A DNA stretch of 64,000 nucleotides from an uncultured bacterium (lineage in GTDB: Bacteria; Patescibacteriota; Minisyncoccia; UBA6257; GWB1-50-10), in assembly GCA_963713955.1 (NCBI GenBank), contig OY970216.1, positions 570,252 to 634,251 of the forward strand, given 5' to 3'. Positions 4,848 through 64,000 of this stretch are shown piece by piece. Position numbers and translations under genes: made by a program. How positions within the stretch are numbered: the first letter of the stretch is position 1; every line of letters starts with the position of its first letter. The notes under the pieces were generated by a model. The model worked only from the letters and a program-made list of their open reading frames with translations, had not been told where the DNA came from and did no database searches.

Positions 4848-6077
4848 ATGATGAAATTGTACGAAAAGCTGCCCGATACTCCCGGTGTCTACACCATGGA
4901 AGACGCCAGCGGCCGGATTCTTTACATCGGCAAAGCCGTCAATTTGAAGCGGCGAGTTTCGAGCTACTTCCTGAAGCCGCACGATGCGCGGATTGAAAGT
5001 CTCGTGAAAGAGATTAAGAAAATTGATTTTAAGAAAACCGACACCGCGATTGAAGCACTCATCCTGGAGTCAGAACTGATAAAAAAGCACCAGCCGCCGT
5101 TCAATGTCAAGGAAAAGGACGACAAGAGTTTTCTCTATGTCGGGATAACCACGGAGAAATTTCCTCGCGTCCTCTTAATCCGCGGCAAAGACATCGGCCA
5201 AACAAAAGAGTTCAGGGTCGTCCACGGGCCATTCACGTCCGCTTCGAGCATTCGCGAAGCCCTCCGGATCATAAGAAAAATCTTCCCGTACGCGACGCAT
5301 CCAGAACCCAAGAGATCACAAGTGAGGGCTTGCTTCGACTACCAAATCGGCCTTTGCCCGGGAACGTGCATCGGCGCGATCTCGCAGAAGGATTATATGA
5401 AAAACATCAGGAACATCGAACTTTTCTTCAGTGGAAAAAAAGAAAGGATCATCAAAAATTTGGAGCGCGAGATGAAAACGGCGAGTAAGATGTTGAATTT
5501 CGAGCGAGCGGGGGAATTGAAGCGCCAACTTTTCGCTCTCCAACACATTCAGGACGTTGCAGTCATCAAGGGAGACGAGATATCCGATACTCGAAATTCG
5601 AAATTAGAAGTTAGAAATTCCACGAAGCGGATAGAGGGTTATGATATATCGAATATCTCGGGTACTTCGGCCGTAGGCTCGATGGTCGTTTTCACCGACG
5701 GGAAACCAGACAAAAAAGAATACCGCAAATTCAAGATACGAACCGTTCTCCAACCGAACGATTTCGGGATGCTCCGGGAAGTCCTAGAAAGACGCCTGAA
5801 AAGAATTCCGCCGGCTGGCGGATGGCCGTTGCCCGACCTGTTTCTGATAGACGGCGGCAAAGGGCAAGTCAGCGCCGTGAAGAGCGTCATCCGAAAGGCG
5901 GGATTAAAAACGCCCGTCGTCGGGATCGCGAAGGGCCCGGAACGGAAGCGGAACGACATCGTGGGAAAGATTCCCGACTTCACAGATCTCCAAACACTCG
6001 TAAAAGTACGAGACGAAGCTCATCGCTTCGCCATCACCTACCACAAGAAAGTGAGGGAATATAATTTCCTGAAATAG
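4848..6077 (+). CDS. uvrC: Excinuclease ABC subunit C, short form (GIY-YIG + UVR + endonuclease domains; no C-terminal HhH domain)
   Basis: A GIY-YIG motif (GVYTMEDASGRILYIGKAVNLKRRV) is present. A UVR domain follows (FERAGELKRQLFALQHI), then the EndoV-like region (IEGYDISN). The protein is 409 aa, whereas canonical UvrC is about 600 aa. Confidence 0.8.
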   Translation: MMKLYEKLPDTPGVYTMEDASGRILYIGKAVNLKRRVSSYFLKPHDARIESLVKEIKKIDFKKTDTAIEALILESELIKKHQPPFNVKEKDDKSFLYVGITTEKFPRVLLIRGKDIGQTKEFRVVHGPFTSASSIREALRIIRKIFPYATHPEPKRSQVRACFDYQIGLCPGTCIGAISQKDYMKNIRNIELFFSGKKERIIKNLEREMKTASKMLNFERAGELKRQLFALQHIQDVAVIKGDEISDTRNSKLEVRNSTKRIEGYDISNISGTSAVGSMVVFTDGKPDKKEYRKFKIRTVLQPNDFGMLREVLERRLKRIPPAGGWPLPDLFLIDGGKGQVSAVKSVIRKAGLKTPVVGIAKGPERKRNDIVGKIPDFTDLQTLVKVRDEAHRFAITYHKKVREYNFLK

Positions 6078-16884: not shown

Positions 16885-17784
16885 ATGAGATTGGAATGGA
16901 GTGAAATGCTTGTGATTGCGGCTATTAGAGAGCTTCATAGGACTGGAGTAAGGATAAATTCCAATTACATCCAGGAACACTACAGGAGTTTGTACAATGC
17001 TGCAGTGTGGCGTTTCGGTAGTTGGGGCGACGCAGTTGAGGCGAGCGGATACAGTTATGCAAAGATTCTCGCACTCAAGCTACTTCGCCATCCGAAATGG
17101 AGTAAACAAATTGTAATCTCGAGAATAAGGGAACTCCATGAATCCGGTGAAAAGCTGAACTCGAATTATATCCAGACACACCACCAATCTCTCTACGGAG
17201 CTGCTATTAGATACTTCGGGAGTTGGGGGAAGGCCGTTAAAGCCGCTGGGTACGATTATGGTTCGGTCCGGGTTCGGAAACCTTTTCGTTCTTGGACGAA
17301 GGACAAAATTGTGAGTGCCATTAAGACCAGGTACCGGAAAGGATTGCCAATCAACACAATGGCAATCTACTCACAGGATCGCGGTCTTTATAGCGCGGTC
17401 AGACGTCATTTTGGGAAAGACGGTATGAAGAAAGCTCAAAAAAAAGCCGGCTTCAATCCGCGAGATTTAGATCCCAAGAGAATATGGACTTCTAAGAAGG
17501 TGTTGCGGGAAATAAGGAGATTGAAAAAACTTCATGTCCCGCTCTACCACTTTTATCTTCTGAATCACGGTTACCAAAGCTTGACCTACGCCGGAGTAAG
17601 GCTCTTCGGCAGCTGGAGAAAGACAATCAAAGCCGCCAGACTTGATTACGATCGTATTAAAGCGGTCAGGAATCATTTCTGGAATAAGGGGCGAGTGATT
17701 GTAGAGATCAGACGTCTTGCCAGAAAAGGTGAGCGCCTGAGTTCGAAACACATCCACCTTACTGTGATGGATAGGTTTCTTTAG
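16885..17784 (+). CDS. Tandem-repeat protein (about 5 degenerate repeats of roughly 62 aa); C-terminus replaced by IS sequence
   Basis: The repeat consensus is W[ST]Kxx[IV][IV]xxIRELHxxGxx[IL]NSNYIQxHxxSLYxAA[IV]RxFGSWxxAVxAAGY, and resembles homing-endonuclease-associated helical repeats. The last 7 codons lie inside IS copy 1. Confidence 0.5.
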   Translation: MRLEWSEMLVIAAIRELHRTGVRINSNYIQEHYRSLYNAAVWRFGSWGDAVEASGYSYAKILALKLLRHPKWSKQIVISRIRELHESGEKLNSNYIQTHHQSLYGAAIRYFGSWGKAVKAAGYDYGSVRVRKPFRSWTKDKIVSAIKTRYRKGLPINTMAIYSQDRGLYSAVRRHFGKDGMKKAQKKAGFNPRDLDPKRIWTSKKVLREIRRLKKLHVPLYHFYLLNHGYQSLTYAGVRLFGSWRKTIKAARLDYDRIKAVRNHFWNKGRVIVEIRRLARKGERLSSKHIHLTVMDRFL

Positions 17785-17824
17785 ACAGTCACTCGACAAG
17801 TTTTCTCGTCGTTTTTTCATTCTC

Positions 17825-18607
17825 TCACACTGCTATCTTCTCTGCAAACACCGAAGGCGGCATCCTGAGAGCGGAGTGGATTCTTGTATGGTTGTACTCC
17901 CAAAGCGTTCGGTAGATCTCCGCCACAAGTTCCCCTAAGGATCTGAACCGATTAGGATCGCCAAGATCCATTTTGAATTTTCCGTAGAAAGATTCTTGGT
18001 ATCCGTTCTCCCACGGCGATCCGGGGCGTGAGCGGGAGATGGTGATGCCGTAGCGCTCAAGCATAGCGATGAACGCCTTCGCTTCGTATTCCCTCCCGTT
18101 GTCAGAATGGAAGATCACGGGTCGCGGGCAATGGAAGAGCGCGTTCGCCAGAGTTTGGATGGTGAGCGTCGATCCCTTCCGGGTCGCCACATGAACGCCC
18201 ATCAGTTGCCTCGTAAACAGGTTAAGGATCGTTGATACGTACAGCTTCTTCCCGTGAAAGACAAGCTCCGTGAAATCCGTCGCCCAGACATGGTTCGCAT
18301 ATGATGGCATAATGCCGAGGAGGAGGTTCGGGAAGTGCCGTTCCGCCTTGGATTTCCTGTATTTTCTCCCATGCCTGCGGTAGGGCTTGATGCCGTAAAT
18401 CCGCATGACCCGTTGCGCTCTCGGTCTGCCGATGCCGAGCGCAATCGCCAGTCGGCGTGAGCCGTATGAGGGATGCTCGTGAAGCACCTCCTCCGTCCGG
18501 ACCTTTAATGCCCAATCCTTCTTGTCCTGCGTTGCGACGTAATAGAGCGATGAGCGCGAGACACCCATGGCGCGAGCCAGGGCGGATACGTTCCTTTCCC
18601 TGCTCAA
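17825..18607 (-). CDS. IS3-family transposase OrfB (rve integrase core, DDE)
   Basis: The rve-core segments WATDFTE, FHSDNGREY and SPWENGYQESF are present. Confidence 0.85.
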   Translation of the reverse strand: MSRERNVSALARAMGVSRSSLYYVATQDKKDWALKVRTEEVLHEHPSYGSRRLAIALGIGRPRAQRVMRIYGIKPYRRHGRKYRKSKAERHFPNLLLGIMPSYANHVWATDFTELVFHGKKLYVSTILNLFTRQLMGVHVATRKGSTLTIQTLANALFHCPRPVIFHSDNGREYEAKAFIAMLERYGITISRSRPGSPWENGYQESFYGKFKMDLGDPNRFRSLGELVAEIYRTLWEYNHTRIHSALRMPPSVFAEKIAV

Positions 18608-18867
18608 TTCTTTTTTTGGGTCTGGGACAGCTTGATCGTGAGTTCACCGATCACTTCGAAGAGTTCCTGATTCTGTTTCTTTAGGCGATTGATTTCTCCC
18701 CAGGAGGGAGCGCTCGTGGCACCGGCGCCGAGCCATCCATACACGGTTGTCTCGTGGACGCCTGCATCTTTTGCCGCTTCTGCGACGGAGACGCCTTCTT
18801 CCTTCACGCGGCGGACAATCTCCGCTTTTACCTCTTTCGCTACCCGATATCCTTTTTTGTTAGCCAT
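18604..18867 (-). CDS. IS3-family transposase OrfA (HTH)
   Basis: An 87-aa protein with a helix-turn-helix and leucine zipper. It ends at the A_AAA_AAG slippery site. Confidence 0.8.
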   Translation of the reverse strand: MANKKGYRVAKEVKAEIVRRVKEEGVSVAEAAKDAGVHETTVYGWLGAGATSAPSWGEINRLKKQNQELFEVIGELTIKLSQTQKKN

Positions 18868-18921
18868 GACACAATGGTAATTTGTTCCGACCTTTGTGTC
18901 TAAATTTTCCTATCCGGAACA

Positions 18922-22859: not shown

Positions 22860-22913
22860 TGTTCCGGATAGGAAAATTTAGACACAAAGGTCGGAACAAA
22901 TTACCATTGTGTC

Positions 22914-23177
22914 ATGGCTAACAAAAAAGGATATCGGGTAGCGAAAGAGGTAAAAGCGGAGATTGTCCGCCGCGTGAAGGAAGAAGGCGTCTCCGTCGCA
23001 GAAGCGGCAAAAGATGCAGGCGTCCACGAGACAACCGTGTATGGATGGCTCGGCGCCGGTGCCACGAGCGCTCCCTCCTGGGGAGAAATCAATCGCCTAA
23101 AGAAACAGAATCAGGAACTCTTCGAAGTGATCGGTGAACTCACGATCAAGCTGTCCCAGACCCAAAAAAAGAATTGA
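22914..23177 (+). CDS. IS3-family transposase OrfA
   Basis: Identical to the OrfA at 18604-18867. Confidence 0.8.
   Translation: MANKKGYRVAKEVKAEIVRRVKEEGVSVAEAAKDAGVHETTVYGWLGAGATSAPSWGEINRLKKQNQELFEVIGELTIKLSQTQKKN
23165..23171 (+). promoter_or_regulatory. Programmed -1 ribosomal frameshift heptamer A_AAA_AAG at the OrfA/OrfB overlap
   Basis: The sequence cccAAAAAAAGaattga places the slippery site 2 codons before the OrfA stop. OrfB is in the -1 frame. Confidence 0.6.
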
Positions 23178-23956
23178 GCAGGGAAAGGAACGTATCCGCC
23201 CTGGCTCGCGCCATGGGTGTCTCGCGCTCATCGCTCTATTACGTCGCAACGCAGGACAAGAAGGATTGGGCATTAAAGGTCCGGACGGAGGAGGTGCTTC
23301 ACGAGCATCCCTCATACGGCTCACGCCGACTGGCGATTGCGCTCGGCATCGGCAGACCGAGAGCGCAACGGGTCATGCGGATTTACGGCATCAAGCCCTA
23401 CCGCAGGCATGGGAGAAAATACAGGAAATCCAAGGCGGAACGGCACTTCCCGAACCTCCTCCTCGGCATTATGCCATCATATGCGAACCATGTCTGGGCG
23501 ACGGATTTCACGGAGCTTGTCTTTCACGGGAAGAAGCTGTACGTATCAACGATCCTTAACCTGTTTACGAGGCAACTGATGGGCGTTCATGTGGCGACCC
23601 GGAAGGGATCGACGCTCACCATCCAAACTCTGGCGAACGCGCTCTTCCATTGCCCGCGACCCGTGATCTTCCATTCTGACAACGGGAGGGAATACGAAGC
23701 GAAGGCGTTCATCGCTATGCTTGAGCGCTACGGCATCACCATCTCCCGCTCACGCCCCGGATCGCCGTGGGAGAACGGATACCAAGAATCTTTCTACGGA
23801 AAATTCAAAATGGATCTTGGCGATCCTAATCGGTTCAGATCCTTAGGGGAACTTGTGGCGGAGATCTACCGAACGCTTTGGGAGTACAACCATACAAGAA
23901 TCCACTCCGCTCTCAGGATGCCGCCTTCGGTGTTTGCAGAGAAGATAGCAGTGTGA
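23174..23956 (+). CDS. IS3-family transposase OrfB (rve)
   Basis: Identical to the OrfB at 17825-18607. Confidence 0.85.
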   Translation: MSRERNVSALARAMGVSRSSLYYVATQDKKDWALKVRTEEVLHEHPSYGSRRLAIALGIGRPRAQRVMRIYGIKPYRRHGRKYRKSKAERHFPNLLLGIMPSYANHVWATDFTELVFHGKKLYVSTILNLFTRQLMGVHVATRKGSTLTIQTLANALFHCPRPVIFHSDNGREYEAKAFIAMLERYGITISRSRPGSPWENGYQESFYGKFKMDLGDPNRFRSLGELVAEIYRTLWEYNHTRIHSALRMPPSVFAEKIAV

Positions 23957-24018
23957 GAGAATGAAAAAACGACGAGAAAACTTGTCGAGTGACTGTCTAA
24001 AGAAACCTATCCATCACA

Positions 24019-34666: not shown

Positions 34667-34796
34667 GACACAAGGGTATATTGACTTCGACCTTTGTGTC
34701 TAATATATGGGGGTCAGGCCATTCATGACAAATTCATTATATCATAGCTATCTCCCTGTCAACAGTTCTTCTTCCCGTAACTTGTCCAGGAAAAAA

Positions 34797-58150: not shown

Positions 58151-58204
58151 TGTTCCGGATAGGAAAATTTAGACACAAAGGTCGGAACAAATTACCATTG
58201 TGTC

Positions 58205-58468
58205 ATGGCTAACAAAAAAGGATATCGGGTAGCGAAAGAGGTAAAAGCGGAGATTGTCCGCCGCGTGAAGGAAGAAGGCGTCTCCGTCGCAGAAGCGGCA
58301 AAAGATGCAGGCGTCCACGAGACAACCGTGTATGGATGGCTCGGCGCCGGTGCCACGAGCGCTCCCTCCTGGGGAGAAATCAATCGCCTAAAGAAACAGA
58401 ATCAGGAACTCTTCGAAGTGATCGGTGAACTCACGATCAAGCTGTCCCAGACCCAAAAAAAGAATTGA
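58205..58468 (+). CDS. IS3-family transposase OrfA
   Basis: Identical to the other OrfA copies. Confidence 0.8.
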   Translation: MANKKGYRVAKEVKAEIVRRVKEEGVSVAEAAKDAGVHETTVYGWLGAGATSAPSWGEINRLKKQNQELFEVIGELTIKLSQTQKKN

Positions 58469-59247
58469 GCAGGGAAAGGAACGTATCCGCCCTGGCTCGC
58501 GCCATGGGTGTCTCGCGCTCATCGCTCTATTACGTCGCAACGCAGGACAAGAAGGATTGGGCATTAAAGGTCCGGACGGAGGAGGTGCTTCACGAGCATC
58601 CCTCATACGGCTCACGCCGACTGGCGATTGCGCTCGGCATCGGCAGACCGAGAGCGCAACGGGTCATGCGGATTTACGGCATCAAGCCCTACCGCAGGCA
58701 TGGGAGAAAATACAGGAAATCCAAGGCGGAACGGCACTTCCCGAACCTCCTCCTCGGCATTATGCCATCATATGCGAACCATGTCTGGGCGACGGATTTC
58801 ACGGAGCTTGTCTTTCACGGGAAGAAGCTGTACGTATCAACGATCCTTAACCTGTTTACGAGGCAACTGATGGGCGTTCATGTGGCGACCCGGAAGGGAT
58901 CGACGCTCACCATCCAAACTCTGGCGAACGCGCTCTTCCATTGCCCGCGACCCGTGATCTTCCATTCTGACAACGGGAGGGAATACGAAGCGAAGGCGTT
59001 CATCGCTATGCTTGAGCGCTACGGCATCACCATCTCCCGCTCACGCCCCGGATCGCCGTGGGAGAACGGATACCAAGAATCTTTCTACGGAAAATTCAAA
59101 ATGGATCTTGGCGATCCTAATCGGTTCAGATCCTTAGGGGAACTTGTGGCGGAGATCTACCGAACGCTTTGGGAGTACAACCATACAAGAATCCACTCCG
59201 CTCTCAGGATGCCGCCTTCGGTGTTTGCAGAGAAGATAGCAGTGTGA
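58465..59247 (+). CDS. IS3-family transposase OrfB (rve)
   Basis: Identical to the other OrfB copies. Confidence 0.85.
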   Translation: MSRERNVSALARAMGVSRSSLYYVATQDKKDWALKVRTEEVLHEHPSYGSRRLAIALGIGRPRAQRVMRIYGIKPYRRHGRKYRKSKAERHFPNLLLGIMPSYANHVWATDFTELVFHGKKLYVSTILNLFTRQLMGVHVATRKGSTLTIQTLANALFHCPRPVIFHSDNGREYEAKAFIAMLERYGITISRSRPGSPWENGYQESFYGKFKMDLGDPNRFRSLGELVAEIYRTLWEYNHTRIHSALRMPPSVFAEKIAV

Positions 59248-59297
59248 GAGAATGAAAAAACGACGAGAAAACTTGTCGAGTGACTGTCTAAAGAAAC

Positions 59298-60389
59298 CTA
59301 TCCATCACAGGGCGTAATCTTCAATCTCGGACCATCAGGTACTTCCTTATCGATGAGATCCCTCAATTCTTCGCCAGTCAAAGCGGAACCTGCGATATTG
59401 CCGCGTACGGTGAACAGTTTCCACACATCCCTCAACTTCGCCACCATAGCCATACCTCTTTCACGGCTAATTCCCTCAATGTCGAAATTTTTACCAAGGT
59501 AACGATGAAGCGTTGCCGGTGAAATTCTCTCTTCGCGGACCATTCTTGCTAAAAATTCCACCAGTTTTCGAGCATCGAGGTGATAACCAGGGTAGCGGTA
59601 AATATACAAATCTCTCCCTCTTCGATCCAAAGTTGGGATAGAATCGCCGAAGTCAAGGATTTTTGAGGCGGGAGTGAAAGCAATGGGATACTTATTGCCG
59701 TCAACCTCGACAGTCAAAGTGCTCTCAATGAACCTATCGATGATCACTCCGGTAATGTATCTGGCCTTCGTATTCCTCAAGTCTTCCAACATGTGACAAC
59801 TTATAAGCCCATAGCAAGCGGCGCTATGAGCGTGATGAGACGAAAGACTTTTAGACGAGGGTTCTTCTTCGTTGAGATAGAAAGGATCAATGCCGCACAT
59901 ACGCGAGCATCCAGGGAACACTTCGGTATAAGATTCACCGAGAGCACATAAGTATTCCTGAACGATGTCGGAGACTAGTCTGCCACCGTACTTGAATACA
60001 TCGAGTTCGCCAGCACCAGTTGGTACGCCGTCAGACGGGACAAGACGAATGCTAAACCATTCTTCTACGGGGGTTCCGTCGGCCGTTGAGTACATAACTT
60101 GAGCGGCGTAAATTGCCGACTTCACATCGAATTTATCAAGCGGCGGCCGGTCACCATAGATGTAATAGGACCCTCGCATGGAAAGCAAGAGTTCATAGAG
60201 AACATCATCTATCCATCGCTCGTCGTGAATACTTTTTATGCGGTATACGGAATATGTTTCACCGGGGGTTTGCCACACAGAAACAGGAGGAGGAAGTTCC
60301 TTGAGAAGCAATCTTATTTCGCGGGCATTAAGTTCCCGTGAAATGCTCTCTAGGGGATTTACTTCATTATCCAAGAATTTTATTTTCAT
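59298..60389 (-). CDS. Hypothetical 363-aa protein; third gene of the E1-like/nitroreductase operon
   Basis: A 9-nt gap separates it from the upstream gene. It has several Cys and His residues (CALGESY, GCSRMCG, SHHAHSAACYGLISCH). I recognise no family, and no clear YcaO motifs. Confidence 0.5.
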   Translation of the reverse strand: MKIKFLDNEVNPLESISRELNAREIRLLLKELPPPVSVWQTPGETYSVYRIKSIHDERWIDDVLYELLLSMRGSYYIYGDRPPLDKFDVKSAIYAAQVMYSTADGTPVEEWFSIRLVPSDGVPTGAGELDVFKYGGRLVSDIVQEYLCALGESYTEVFPGCSRMCGIDPFYLNEEEPSSKSLSSHHAHSAACYGLISCHMLEDLRNTKARYITGVIIDRFIESTLTVEVDGNKYPIAFTPASKILDFGDSIPTLDRRGRDLYIYRYPGYHLDARKLVEFLARMVREERISPATLHRYLGKNFDIEGISRERGMAMVAKLRDVWKLFTVRGNIAGSALTGEELRDLIDKEVPDGPRLKITPCDG

Positions 60390-60398
60390 GGCTGCCTC

Positions 60399-61499
60399 CT
60401 AAGATTCTTCAGACGAAATTTCGACCACTTCGTCAACAGGCACACGAGGTGCATGAGGTGGTCGTGCTGTTCGCCCTTCCAAGGAGTACCCAAGTCGAAA
60501 GATGACTGTCGGTCTCCCCTGTTTCCAGAGTCGCATTTTAAGAGCAGTGTTCAGAATTGGTTCTTCTACCATAGCAGCATGCACCGAAAGATCCAGTCCC
60601 TCGAGTTCCGCTAGGAGCGCACATCGCTCGAGCGATCTTCCAGCAGAAACCCAAGAGGAAGGTTTATCCTCTGATGCACCAATAATTCCAATGAGGGGCG
60701 CTGAGAGAAATGTTTCTCGATCGCCGGCAGGAAAGGCGTCCGCAAGGTACGTGTCAAATTGACCGTCACCTAAAAGTGCGCGGTGAACTTTCTCCGCCAA
60801 CTCGTCGTCGAAGTCAAACGTCGCGCCGGGCATACATCTTCCTTCGAGAGTATCGTTTGGGCGAAGGAAATTACCCAACTCGTTCCGGAATTTCGTTAAG
60901 GCAACAACGGCGTTATCGGCAGCATACTGTGCTTCCGCCATCATGCCGCGCGTAAACCGGTCGGTTACGGCACTGAATGAACAACCAAATCGGTTCACGA
61001 TTTTCTTCATCTCCTCAACGAGGTTTTGCGGTACCTTTCTCCCTTCGTCAAATCTCTTGCGGTTCATGCGTCTTTGTTTCATCGCATTCATAATTTGAAC
61101 ATCGGAACCACCTTTCATTGTGGGATCACCAACCTGCACCGTTACAAAGGGTAAGGGGTAACCTTCCGTGCAAAGAGGATATTTCACAGAGCACCAAGAG
61201 CCATAGTGATCAGCCGCCGTGAGAAAATTTTCAAGAGTGCAACCGATACTTATAGCCGCTTGGCGACCCGTTTTGTCAGATGCGGGCAACACGAAGCGCG
61301 AATCAAGACAGATGTCGATGGTGTTCGTCGCCGGACGGACGACGAAACTCCATGGCTGAGTGTTATGACTACTCGCTGCAAGAATCGCCCACGACACAAG
61401 GTGTTTCAGAAACCGCTCCTTCGAAACCGCTTCGGTCAACGGTTCTATCTGCCAAGCGGCATAGTTGGGAGTTCTGGGTGTTGCATCTTCACGAAACAT
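60399..61499 (-). CDS. Nitroreductase-superfamily protein, two-domain (SagB/McbC-like FMN oxidoreductase fold)
   Basis: The N-terminus reads AILAASSHNTQPWSFVV. The second half contains LSAPLIGIIGAS and VHAAMVEE. It overlaps the upstream gene by 11 nt. Confidence 0.6.
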   Translation of the reverse strand: MFREDATPRTPNYAAWQIEPLTEAVSKERFLKHLVSWAILAASSHNTQPWSFVVRPATNTIDICLDSRFVLPASDKTGRQAAISIGCTLENFLTAADHYGSWCSVKYPLCTEGYPLPFVTVQVGDPTMKGGSDVQIMNAMKQRRMNRKRFDEGRKVPQNLVEEMKKIVNRFGCSFSAVTDRFTRGMMAEAQYAADNAVVALTKFRNELGNFLRPNDTLEGRCMPGATFDFDDELAEKVHRALLGDGQFDTYLADAFPAGDRETFLSAPLIGIIGASEDKPSSWVSAGRSLERCALLAELEGLDLSVHAAMVEEPILNTALKMRLWKQGRPTVIFRLGYSLEGRTARPPHAPRVPVDEVVEISSEES

Positions 61500-62724
61500 G
61501 GCTAACCTCCTTCGCTATCGCACTTTGGTCGAAAAATGTTCTTTCCTGCAACTCAAATCCAAGCAATGCTAACCCAATGTGCCGGGCTAACTCCGCCCCA
61601 GCTTTTGTAGCAGTAGAACCTAATTGAGGTAACCCTTTGAACATAGGTTGAATCTCTCGGACCACGGGAGGCCGGTCGCGTAATACAGGAGAGAGCCCTG
61701 GAAGCATCAACTGCTTGAATTCCGGCACGCTCAAACAATCTGTACCGACGATAGCAAGAAAGAGTTCCATAAAATCTTCCTGCTTATGCGTTCTGTGCCA
61801 GCGATCCAGTTTCTCGAACAATTTATCGTCCGATATACTGTTCCCCATGAGCGGAGGTGAATTATCAAGATCAAACCGCTGGACATCGATCTGAAAACAC
61901 TGCCCGAGGTCAGAAACCATAAAAACCGGAATCCTGAAACGACGAGCTACCTCACGGATATGAATTTTCATATCAAGATCGTCCATTTCCTCGACAATGA
62001 TCGTCGCGGGAGGCTCATTGCGAGCAGGGTTACCACCCACAAAGTCCTCTATGTTGTCGATATGGACTCCTTCGTTATAAACTGAGAATGTCATAAAGGG
62101 ATCCATTGATTGCAGTTCAAATGCAGTCGCTTCAGCTTTATTCAAGCCCATTTGCCGATACGTCAAGGGAAGACGATTTGCATTCGAAACGTGAAACGTT
62201 TTCGCATCAGCCAGTTTCATACCACAGGGATGCAGGTCTTCAAAAAGCACGCGAGCGACGTTCCCACCGAGACTACACCCGGCAATTGCGACCACGGGCC
62301 TTTCGAACTTCTCCCGTACATCTCTCCACGACAGTCTCATCTCAGGATCCTGATAGAGCGTCTTATTTCTGACGTAGAACGAGAGTTGATGCCAGCGCGG
62401 TGGCGCATATCTCACCACATCTCCGTTCCGTGGATACCATACAGAGACCCCGTATGATACGTCGTCTCTCTTGGATTTGAACAATTCATATTCCTTCACG
62501 AAATCGTCTTTGAATTCGGATCCAGGAACCAAGTCTTCCAAAAGAGACTCCATGGCAAAAGGTGCCATATCGTAGTAATGAGAAGGAGAAACCTTTATTG
62601 TCTCTTCTCTTCCGTCACTGTCCTTGAGATGAATAGACAATCCAGTAGATGGACTGCCAGAAACACTATCCGGCTCCAAGATGACCGGTGCTCCGTCGTA
62701 CGCAGCGTACAGTCTTGTTTCCAT
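61489..62724 (-). CDS. ThiF/MoeB-family E1-like adenylyltransferase-fold protein with an about 150-aa N-terminal extension
   Basis: The Rossmann motif VVAIAGCSLGGNVARVL is present. The D-x-D-x-V-x-x-SNLNRQ equivalent reads KLADAKTFHVSNANRLPL. GLNKAEATAFELQSMDP and IPVFMVSDLG are also present. Confidence 0.65.
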   Translation of the reverse strand: METRLYAAYDGAPVILEPDSVSGSPSTGLSIHLKDSDGREETIKVSPSHYYDMAPFAMESLLEDLVPGSEFKDDFVKEYELFKSKRDDVSYGVSVWYPRNGDVVRYAPPRWHQLSFYVRNKTLYQDPEMRLSWRDVREKFERPVVAIAGCSLGGNVARVLFEDLHPCGMKLADAKTFHVSNANRLPLTYRQMGLNKAEATAFELQSMDPFMTFSVYNEGVHIDNIEDFVGGNPARNEPPATIIVEEMDDLDMKIHIREVARRFRIPVFMVSDLGQCFQIDVQRFDLDNSPPLMGNSISDDKLFEKLDRWHRTHKQEDFMELFLAIVGTDCLSVPEFKQLMLPGLSPVLRDRPPVVREIQPMFKGLPQLGSTATKAGAELARHIGLALLGFELQERTFFDQSAIAKEVSHVS

Positions 62725-62874
62725 AACTAACCTTCCTTTCTTTGTCTTGTGTGGAATATGTTTATGAATTATGAAATTGTAAACAAGGGTCTCATCCCAC
62801 TACTATAATTAGCGTGACACGCGGAACCGCGCTTGTCAAAACAAGCATCAATCAGAAAATGGTATAATTAACAA

Positions 62875-63285
62875 ATGCCGGACCAAACAATCATTTCACT
62901 GAACGGGGCGACGATTCTCATTGCGGAGGATGACGCACTCGTCTCAAAGCTGTACGAAAAGAAAATCGAACTCTCAGGAGGAAAACCGATCGTCGCGGTC
63001 GACGGGGAGGACACACTCAAAAAACTTGAGAGTACGAAGATCGATCTCATTCTCCTCGACATCAAGATGCCCAAAATGAACGGCTATGAAGTACTCCGGA
63101 GAGTAAAAAACAACCCGGCAACGAAGGACATCCCAGTCATCGTACTCACGAGCCTCGAAACCCATCCGGAATATCTCGAGAAAACAACGGGCATCAAAGT
63201 CGACGAATATCTCATGAAAGCCGATACGTTACCCGACGAAGTCATACAGAAAATATCCGAACACCTCGGCGAGAAAAAAGGATAA
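62875..63285 (+). CDS. Stand-alone response-regulator receiver domain (CheY-like)
   Basis: The acidic pocket reads IAEDD, the phospho-acceptor DLILLDIKMP, then VIVLTS and a conserved Lys. No output domain is present. Confidence 0.8.
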   Translation: MPDQTIISLNGATILIAEDDALVSKLYEKKIELSGGKPIVAVDGEDTLKKLESTKIDLILLDIKMPKMNGYEVLRRVKNNPATKDIPVIVLTSLETHPEYLEKTTGIKVDEYLMKADTLPDEVIQKISEHLGEKKG

Positions 63286-63483
63286 ATGAGGAAAGGTCGG
63301 GGTACGCTTTTTTTCAAATCAATGCCAAAAGCAAAAAAGAAAAAAACGACTAAAAAGACAAGGAAAGCCACGTCAAAGGCGGTATTGAAAAGCACGGCGT
63401 GCGATTGCGCCCTCGGCGTCTGCAGATGCAAGACCTGCGTCTGTACCTGCACCAACGGAAAGTGCAAGTGCGTCTGCAAGTAA
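63286..63483 (+). CDS. Small cationic Cys-rich peptide (65 aa): a Lys-rich N-terminus followed by 11 Cys in CxC repeats
   Basis: It is translationally coupled to the receiver gene (TAAATG). The C-terminus reads CDCALGVCRCKTCVCTCTNGKCKCVCK. Confidence 0.5.
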   Translation: MRKGRGTLFFKSMPKAKKKKTTKKTRKATSKAVLKSTACDCALGVCRCKTCVCTCTNGKCKCVCK

Positions 63484-63501
63484 CCGCTTCTTGTTTCAAA
63501 A

Positions 63502-64000
63502 ATGCAAAAAACCAGACTGGCGGTCGCGGGCGACGAAGGTTCCTTTTCCGAGGAAGCGGGGCTCGCCTACACCCAAAGAACCGGGCTCAAAACGAAGCTT
63601 GTTTTCGCGACTGACATGGAGGGCGTGCTTTCATTAGTCGAAAGGGGCGAGGTCAACTTGGGAATATTCCCGGTCGTGAACTCACGAGGCGGTCTCGTGC
63701 AAACCGCTTTCGAAGCAATGGGCCGCCATTTATTCGCAATCGTCGGCGAGGTCTGGCTCGACGTGCACCAATGCCTCATGACTCTGCCGACGATCAAGAA
63801 ATCGCAAATAAAGAGGATAGCGAGCCATCCCCAGGCGATTTCCCAATGCGAACGGTACCTCGCCAAAGAATTTAAAAACATGCCGCTCGAAGAGCGGGAA
63901 GACACGGCCAAGGCGGCGAGCGACTTGGCCTCCGGGCTTTTATCGAAAAGCACCGCTGTTATAGCCCCAGCCAAGTCTGCTCGCATCTACGGACTGAAAA
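63502..64000 (+). CDS. pheA: Prephenate dehydratase, 5' part; continues beyond the window
   Basis: The N-terminus reads RLAVAGDEGSFSEEA with TLPTIKKSQIKRIASHPQAISQC, matching the PDT domain. The frame is open to the window end. Confidence 0.7.
   Translation, partial: MQKTRLAVAGDEGSFSEEAGLAYTQRTGLKTKLVFATDMEGVLSLVERGEVNLGIFPVVNSRGGLVQTAFEAMGRHLFAIVGEVWLDVHQCLMTLPTIKKSQIKRIASHPQAISQCERYLAKEFKNMPLEEREDTAKAASDLASGLLSKSTAVIAPAKSARIYGLK

Follow-up and report, generated by a model that had tools for sequence, protein, structure and literature searches.

The 3′ end of the window (the whole stretch of DNA analysed, 64,000 nucleotides in length) holds a receiver gene, a small open reading frame (ORF) and the beginning of pheA. 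The receiver gene (62875..63285) encodes a single-domain protein of 136 aa (Pfam Response_reg, 3.3e-19), and its TAA stop codon is directly abutted by the ATG of a 65-codon ORF on the plus strand (63286..63483), giving a TAAATG junction with both ORFs in one reading frame. The prephenate dehydratase gene pheA (63502..64000, plus strand; Pfam PDT, 3.7e-36) starts with an ATG 18 nt after the stop codon of the small ORF and runs off the window. The position of the small ORF, its 65-aa sequence, the TAAATG junction and the 18-nt gap to pheA had been given in a preliminary description of this DNA, and each was confirmed on the sequence.

The CxC repeats that the same description had pointed out are also present, and six such triplets could be counted (CDC, CRC, CVC, CTC, CKC and CVC). 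With 10 cysteines, the C-terminal 27 residues of the ORF represent the maximum among all six-frame ORFs of the window; the next-best ORFs reach 7 cysteines in a stretch of this length, and 5–7 were obtained in 20 shuffled versions of the window. The DNA of the cysteine part contains short GCGTCTGCA repeats and was found to form no tandem array. At least five of the six reading frames are open over this TGC-rich stretch, and an antisense ORF of 131 codons (63084-63479, minus strand) covers the 3′ half of the receiver gene as well as most of the microprotein gene. These open frames, including the antisense ORF, are regarded as a by-product of composition and not as a gene.

The most likely coding sequence within the small ORF is 63322..63483 (plus strand), which encodes 53 aa followed by TAA (MPKAKKKKTTKKTRKATSKAVLKSTACDCALGVCRCKTCVCTCTNGKCKCVCK) and whose start was chosen by homologue alignment. 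The resulting microprotein (5.7 kDa), in which 10 of the 53 residues are cysteines (19%), consists of two parts. An N-terminal Lys/Thr/Ser/Ala-rich tail of 26 residues (63322..63399, plus strand), with a net charge of +11 and predicted to be disordered, is followed by a cysteine-rich C-terminal domain of 27 residues (63400..63480, plus strand) with 10 cysteines (37% of the domain), nine of which are invariant in the family. The domain follows the pattern C-x-C-x2-G-x-C-x-C-x2-C-x-(C)-x-C-x4-C-x-C-V-C-x. Neither a signal peptide nor a hydrophobic segment could be identified in the microprotein. The first 12 codons of the 65-codon ORF (63286..63321, plus strand; MRKGRGTLFFKS) are probably a 5′ untranslated leader or promoter and not coding.

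Homologues and selective constraint

HMMER, run in full against 1.84 billion representative proteins, returned three true relatives, namely P0017 (1.1e-7), P0018 (54 aa; 2.7e-7) and P0020 (71 aa; 8.8e-5), while the fourth protein of the list, P0019 (1378 aa, with nine matched stretches), is presumed to have matched the Lys-rich part through low complexity. P0017 is identical with an ORF ending at position 5114 of the metagenome contig L047 (MLKTKKQAVKTKPKRTIKKKKLVSQGIIKTSSCACARGVCACRECICTCTNGKCKCVCG), which was among the matches listed in a degenerate-DNA scan of metagenome contigs. Another listed match, L048, was rejected as an off-frame Lys-rich chance match within a HypF-like gene. When 5.8 billion clusters were searched with the family profile, three relatives at 1e-16 to 1e-22 and no other match were obtained, which gives a family of at least four members including the window protein, with three clusters in 5.8 billion. 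The word-indexed protein search with the 65-aa ORF gave no match, and the same index yielded the three homologues with the family profile. No relative of the microprotein was found in the viral contigs scanned.

Known families did not account for these proteins. Pfam returned no family at E <= 1 for the 65-aa ORF and none at E <= 10 for the three homologues, and NCBIfam returned none at E <= 1 for the 65-aa ORF. In the PDB, no chain was matched by the family profile at E <= 10, and a search with the single sequence gave chance neuraminidase matches only (E > 2). An exact-product look-up found neither the 65-aa nor the 53-aa form recorded as a called gene, and on the identical public contigs L001 and L002 the gene callers left the interval between the receiver gene and pheA empty. 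As judged by these searches, the family is very rare, previously unclassified and unannotated in this genome.

In the alignment of the four members, the 27-residue C-terminal domain is ungapped and each protein ends one residue past its last cysteine. Nine cysteines, G32 and V51 are invariant, and the tenth cysteine of the window protein (C41) is replaced by tyrosine in P0020. The N-terminal part ranges from 26 to 44 residues across the family and is variable in both sequence and length, low in complexity and usually strongly basic.

Codon comparison of the window gene with the L047 gene over 31 codons shows 7 identical codons, 14 with synonymous and 10 with non-synonymous changes, and the differences are distributed 7/7/21 over the three codon positions. 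All nine changes that separate the two genes in CTCTNGKCKCVC, the 12 codons ahead of the terminal residue, are synonymous. All six pairwise comparisons within the family give a pS of 0.52-1.09, which is near saturation, against a pN of 0.18-0.37. Saturated synonymous sites together with a low pN argue for a translated, constrained frame and hence for a real gene, and the pattern marks the small ORF as a genuine gene under purifying selection. The preliminary description had reasoned that an ORF lacking conservation would probably not be a functional gene; this one recurs in three homologues, in unrelated contexts and with nine invariant cysteines.

Start codon and leader motif

P0018 begins with MPTAKPKK, which aligns with MPKAKKKK at the second methionine of the window ORF (63322), and the alignment with P0020 supports the same start. 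In L049 and L051, two of the homologue loci, no ATG of the stop-to-stop frame precedes the methionine equivalent to 63322. A counterpart of MRKGRGTLFFKS was sought in the homologue alignment and is absent from all homologues. The real start is thus probably the second ATG at 63322, giving a protein of 53 aa, with initiation at 63286 being unlikely. Since the homologues point to this start, the contact between the receiver stop codon and the first ATG (TAAATG) is probably incidental. No Shine-Dalgarno sequence precedes 63322; however, a Shine-Dalgarno-like 4-mer is present in only 8 of the 53 long genes of the window, and its absence is therefore no argument against that start. In many genes of the window, a box resembling TATAAT lies 5-12 nt ahead of the ATG, the receiver gene being an example (tggTATAATtaacaaATG at 62858-62877), which suggests mostly leaderless or very short-leader mRNAs.

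A putative -10-like box, ATAAAT (63282..63287, plus strand), overlaps the receiver stop codon and the first ATG; the assignment is one of consensus resemblance only, and the box is not among the listings of our promoter scan. It is followed after 4 bases by the motif AAAGGTCG (63292..63299, plus strand), which is common to homologous genes and whose first base is here 30 nt upstream of the ATG at 63322. In L047 and L051, TATAAT is found at the position equivalent to ATAAAT, 5 bases before AAAGGTCG, and the motif itself (4907-4914 in L047 and 7963-7970 in L051) lies 28 and 38 nt before the respective start codons. Taken over the family, AAAGGTCG occurs 27-41 nt upstream of the microprotein start codon in three of the four loci, with G/T-rich and then T-rich sequence after it. 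A second site in L051, at about 3425, has the variant AAAGGTCA.

The motif is also found upstream of a second, unrelated family of small proteins, single-pass membrane proteins 114-119 aa in length, two of the three members having a Cys-rich N-terminus (sites at L001 18694-18701, minus strand, and L010 644-651). In this genome, a second Cys-rich small protein is encoded at L001 18313-18660 (minus strand), ~8 kb past the right end of the window, and consists of MQQKNDHPEGCKCPMCSGGKCEACGGCACGSCHCFMHGGC, a transmembrane helix and a Gly/Tyr-rich tail, in this order. It has no Pfam match, FMN_bind/ApbE/NQR-like genes lie alongside, and its orthologue in L010 (677-1036, 119 aa) is convergent and located beyond the end of the homology between L010 and the window.

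Overall, the AAAGGTCG 8-mer is about as frequent as expected by chance, whereas its position and orientation depart from chance. The six motif-bearing leaders were found to have no stable RNA structure in common. The motif may represent an operator or a transcription start site element, and the microprotein gene seems to be equipped with a promoter-like box of its own and a conserved leader motif. AAAGGTCG is present as well in each copy of an insertion sequence (IS) of this genome, 28-29 nt before orfA. Three copies of this element, which encodes an HTH_Tnp_1 plus rve transposase, are located at 17772-18921 (minus strand), 22860-24009 (plus strand) and 58151-59300 (plus strand) and are 100% identical over at least 1150 bp; a diverged fourth copy lies near 34695 (minus strand).

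Relation to the receiver gene, the ThiF-like operon and pheA

The receiver gene is part of a conserved cassette (window 59298-63285) which comprises genes for a ThiF-like protein, an Acg-family nitroreductase-like protein, an unknown protein (333-385 aa) and the receiver. The ThiF-like gene (61489..62724, minus strand) has 12 relatives besides itself, making 13 proteins in 5.8 billion clusters, and a scan of the genome collection with the ThiF-like protein gave no relative. At every fetched relative locus the ThiF-like gene is followed by the nitroreductase-like gene and the gene for the 333-385-aa protein, which has no Pfam match, and each of these loci also holds genes for a single-domain receiver and a histidine kinase, the latter being of the HisKA_7TM type in L003-L008 and a tandem HisKA/HATPase_c kinase in L009. 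In the window, tblastn found no histidine kinase; an IS copy occupies the kinase site of the relatives, which leaves an orphan receiver.

Translational coupling of the microprotein gene to the receiver gene, as proposed in the preliminary description, is not borne out, because the homologues align from the second ATG and because sequence homology with the nearest relative is lost shortly before the receiver gene ends. This relative, L010, is the closest one of the receiver/operon block, with 83% nucleotide identity over window 59311-63263; the homology stops just inside the receiver 3′ end (window 63263) and L010 has no microprotein ORF. The break indicates that the receiver goes with the operon and that the microprotein gene belongs to another synteny block. 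A receiver-peptide fusion by read-through of the single TAA, the two ORFs being in the same frame, was considered and rejected since related receivers end alike (135 aa in L010 and 130 aa in L003) and the homologues are free-standing.

The idea that the peptide is the substrate of the divergent ThiF-like/nitroreductase operon does not survive either. Eight operon loci were scanned for Cys-rich ORFs, together with tblastn with the low-complexity filters off, and only noise was obtained; a Cys-rich small ORF is absent from five distinct operon loci (L003, L006, L009, L010 and the L004/L005 variants). At the three homologue loci L047, L049 and L051, the neighbouring genes include no ThiF, nitroreductase, YcaO or radical-SAM gene. 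Moreover, the best NCBIfam match of the ThiF-like protein is the Rv1355c family (1.9e-32) and the nitroreductase-like protein best matches the FMN-binding oxidoreductases of the Acg family (1.9e-53; 182 bits, the cutoff being 199). The NCBIfam listing for the operon proteins includes no TOMM or SagB-type family, and no YcaO was found in the window's locus. By these matches the operon is of the Rv1355c/Acg type and not of the azole-forming (TOMM) type. Co-occurrence therefore fails in both directions, with the operon lacking the peptide at at least five loci and the peptide lacking the operon at three, and the substrate hypothesis fails with it. For the operon of ThiF-like, Acg-like and unknown proteins with its receiver and 7TM kinase, the neighbouring microprotein gives no ground for a peptide-modifying reading. 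On this comparison of loci, the microprotein gene has no functional connection with either the receiver gene or the ThiF-like/nitroreductase operon.

Our promoter/terminator scan placed no terminator-like site between the receiver gene and pheA (63286-63502), and pheA is probably co-transcribed with the microprotein gene by read-through. The 36 pheA relatives, all from uncultivated bacteria and most of them labelled Peregrinibacteria, Peribacteria, Gracilibacteria or Magasanikbacteria (Patescibacteria-group), have neither a Cys-rich ORF nor homologous DNA upstream, and blastn of the intergenic DNA gave chance matches of 12-21 nt only. Thus, pheA is not a conserved partner of the microprotein gene. 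A leader or attenuator peptide of pheA was rejected as well: there is no run of phenylalanines (the 65-codon ORF has only two, both within the 12 probably untranslated codons), neither a terminator nor an antiterminator is present, and the homologues lie away from pheA. Rfam at a permissive threshold gave nothing relevant, and the folding of RNA from 63270-63520 is not unusual (z = -0.8).

The homologues have other neighbours altogether, namely an HD-domain gene in L047, bPH_2 and small membrane protein genes in L049, and a Ser hydrolase/hemerythrin/Obg set in L051, where the microprotein gene lies 42 nt upstream of the hemerythrin-domain gene. Different neighbours at all four loci point to a stand-alone gene. 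No metal-homeostasis gene is consistently adjacent across the four member loci. Just past the right end of the window, an ArsR/SmtB-family HTH_5 regulator (101 aa) and an FMN reductase/flavodoxin-like gene (L001 11190-12049, minus strand) are located 1.1-1.6 kb downstream of the microprotein gene and convergent with pheA. The regulator is a candidate sensor of metals or redox state; its putative link to the microprotein gene does not recur at the homologue loci.

A metallothionein-like reading and its alternatives

On balance, we favour the reading in which 63322..63483 encodes, as a stand-alone gene, a cytoplasmic metallothionein-like protein of 53 residues that belongs to a rare new family. 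In the reducing cytoplasm, the nine thiolates would wrap a metal-thiolate cluster in the fashion of metallothioneins, the simplest stoichiometry being three divalent ions on nine cysteines (the Zn3Cys9 β-domain type) or several Cu(I) ions, and the protein would serve to buffer, store or hand on Zn or Cu (or Cd). The polycationic tail, predicted to be disordered, could hold the module on nucleic acids or on anionic membranes and surfaces. An independent metal-binding or nucleoid-associated micro-protein had been the second proposal of the preliminary description, and in the light of the sequence comparisons this would be the best remaining reading.

CxC motifs are typical of metal-thiolate proteins, and the metallothionein class is classically defined by a mass below about 10 kDa, a sequence rich in CxC/CxxC cysteines, few aromatic residues or histidines, and multi-metal thiolate clusters. 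The masses of the four members (5.7, 6.4, 5.8 and 7.8 kDa) are below the ~10 kDa limit; the numbers of aromatic residues are 0, 0, 0 and 1, and histidine is absent from all of them. Since the four proteins agree with the definition in composition but show no significant match to any curated family, we call them metallothionein-like and do not assign them to a known family. Structure prediction with AlphaFold2 from the four-sequence alignment gave a pLDDT of 53, which is of low confidence and uninformative as to the fold, with values below 50 for residues 1-19. When compared to human MT2 by hhalign, TACDCALGVCRCKTCVCT aligned to residues 11-27 (DSCTCA-GSCKCKECKCT) with 59% identity over 17 columns at a probability of 32%, an alignment which may be driven by composition alone and is a resemblance, not evidence of homology.

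A Zn3Cys9 cluster on exactly nine cysteines is formed by the mammalian metallothionein β-domain (PMC10243857). Like the β-domain of MT1/MT2 with its Zn3Cys9 or Cd3Cys9 cluster, the cysteine-rich domain is small and has nine conserved cysteines, mostly in CxC pairs 2-5 residues apart, with Lys and Thr between the cysteines and neither His nor aromatic residues, and the local pattern CxCA(x)GxCxCxxCxCT is found in both. In contrast to the mammalian proteins, the microprotein has a single domain instead of a β plus an α domain, and it has no match to Pfam Metallothio; unlike metallothioneins it also carries a polycationic N-terminal tail (26-44 residues in the family) and has a basic pI (8.0-9.8 in the family). 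The bacterial metallothioneins MymT and BmtA are reported to have a pI of 5-6 (PMC13519478). With SmtA/BmtA (Pfam Metallothio_Pro) and MymT the microprotein shares a bacterial origin, the 45-80 aa size class, a cytoplasmic location and richness in cysteine. MymT-type proteins use CxC motifs, whereas SmtA/BmtA reportedly have His ligands and a zinc-finger-like fold (Blindauer 2001, cited in PMC3447885). The microprotein has no sequence match to these bacterial proteins and differs from SmtA/BmtA in having no His; SmtA, BmtA and MymT have no basic tail, and in comparison to the bacterial metallothioneins no dedicated metal sensor is conserved beside the microprotein gene. Our literature search found nothing pertinent on metallothioneins in Patescibacteria or on Cys-rich small proteins in CPR bacteria, and no described bacterial counterpart of a polycationic tail joined to a nine-Cys module.

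The strongest alternative, which we nevertheless consider rather unlikely, is a microprotein that binds nucleic acids by means of a structural Zn cluster; a Zn3Cys9 knot with an H1-like polylysine tail would then act as a nucleoid or ribosome factor and not in metal storage. Zn3Cys9 clusters on nine cysteines are also known from CXC and pre-SET domains, and in MSL2 the module is a known DNA-binding domain (PMC3447885). The resemblance to the CXC/tesmin/MSL2 and pre-SET modules extends to nine invariant cysteines, richness in CxC and a possible nucleic-acid link, here through the basic tail, and the gene neighbourhoods of the family are housekeeping-like. In three of the four members the tail is strongly basic (+11, +12 and +11) and the cysteine domain itself carries a charge of +2 to +4, in line with such a role. 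However, P0018 has a tail of just +3 and a domain of -1, suggesting that a polycation-dependent role is not universal in the family, and the sequence of the tail is not conserved. In addition, the CXC/tesmin and pre-SET modules are eukaryotic, about 50 residues long and embedded in large proteins, whereas the microprotein has its nine cysteines in 26 residues with other spacing, and neither the ORF nor its homologues match Pfam CXC/tesmin (TCR).

It seems less probable still that the microprotein is an iron-sulfur or redox-active thiol protein, carrying an Fe-S cluster or acting as a sacrificial thiol/electrophile buffer in organisms lacking glutathione. Nine cysteines would be as well suited to an Fe-S cluster or a redox buffer as to a metal-thiolate cluster. 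The high thiol density is compatible with this, as are the hemerythrin-domain gene 42 nt downstream in L051 and the FMN reductase and ArsR-type regulator about 1 kb downstream in this genome, outside the window. Yet, the canonical ferredoxin motif CxxCxxCxxxC(P) is absent, and each of these links of context is confined to one locus and does not recur. The nucleic-acid-binding and the Fe-S/thiol explanations differ from the metallothionein-like one in physiological role rather than in basic chemistry.

There is very little to recommend a RiPP precursor or other substrate of the divergent operon, in which a Lys-rich leader would precede a Cys-rich core converted into thiazoles or otherwise modified. 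The microprotein gene does lie about 600 bp from the E1-like/FMN-oxidoreductase-like gene pair, its C-terminus is rich in Cys and Thr, and a short peptide with a Cys-rich C-terminal part is reminiscent of SCIFF/TOMM-type precursors. Against this, and besides the failure of co-occurrence and the family matches of the enzymes, no radical-SAM, YcaO or SagB-type enzyme is present at any of the four loci and the constant companion of the operon is the receiver, with a HisKA_7TM kinase, not the peptide. Conservation is also reversed with respect to most RiPPs, the 'core' being invariant and the 'leader' variable and unconserved. That the ORF is no gene at all, either a chance frame in low-complexity TGC/AAG-rich intergenic DNA or a pheA leader/attenuator peptide, is scarcely credible: the silence of the gene callers, the several open frames over the Cys region, the missing Shine-Dalgarno sequence and the position directly upstream of pheA are outweighed by protein-level conservation despite saturated synonymous sites, by homologues at loci without pheA, by the rarity of Shine-Dalgarno sequences here, and by the lack of a Phe run, of terminator or antiterminator, of an Rfam match and of an unusual RNA fold.

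A bolder extension of the metallothionein-like reading, to which we give only a small chance, is that the protein might be the first representative of a new class of bacterial microproteins that carry metal clusters, with a Zn3Cys9 or Cu-thiolate module tethered by polylysine to DNA, RNA or the ribosome. It would then be a metal- or redox-responsive nucleoid or translation factor of ultra-small Patescibacteria-type bacteria, co-regulated with the single-pass membrane protein through AAAGGTCG at the transcription start. If the metal-cluster reading is true, these proteins would constitute a metallothionein-like family that is not linked by sequence to SmtA/BmtA or MymT. Of its four member loci, at least two, the window and L051, belong to lineages of the Patescibacteria type, uncultivated organisms with reduced genomes in which metal and redox homeostasis is barely charted. 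The gene also illustrates how automatic gene callers can miss a conserved microprotein, as happened on identical public contigs.
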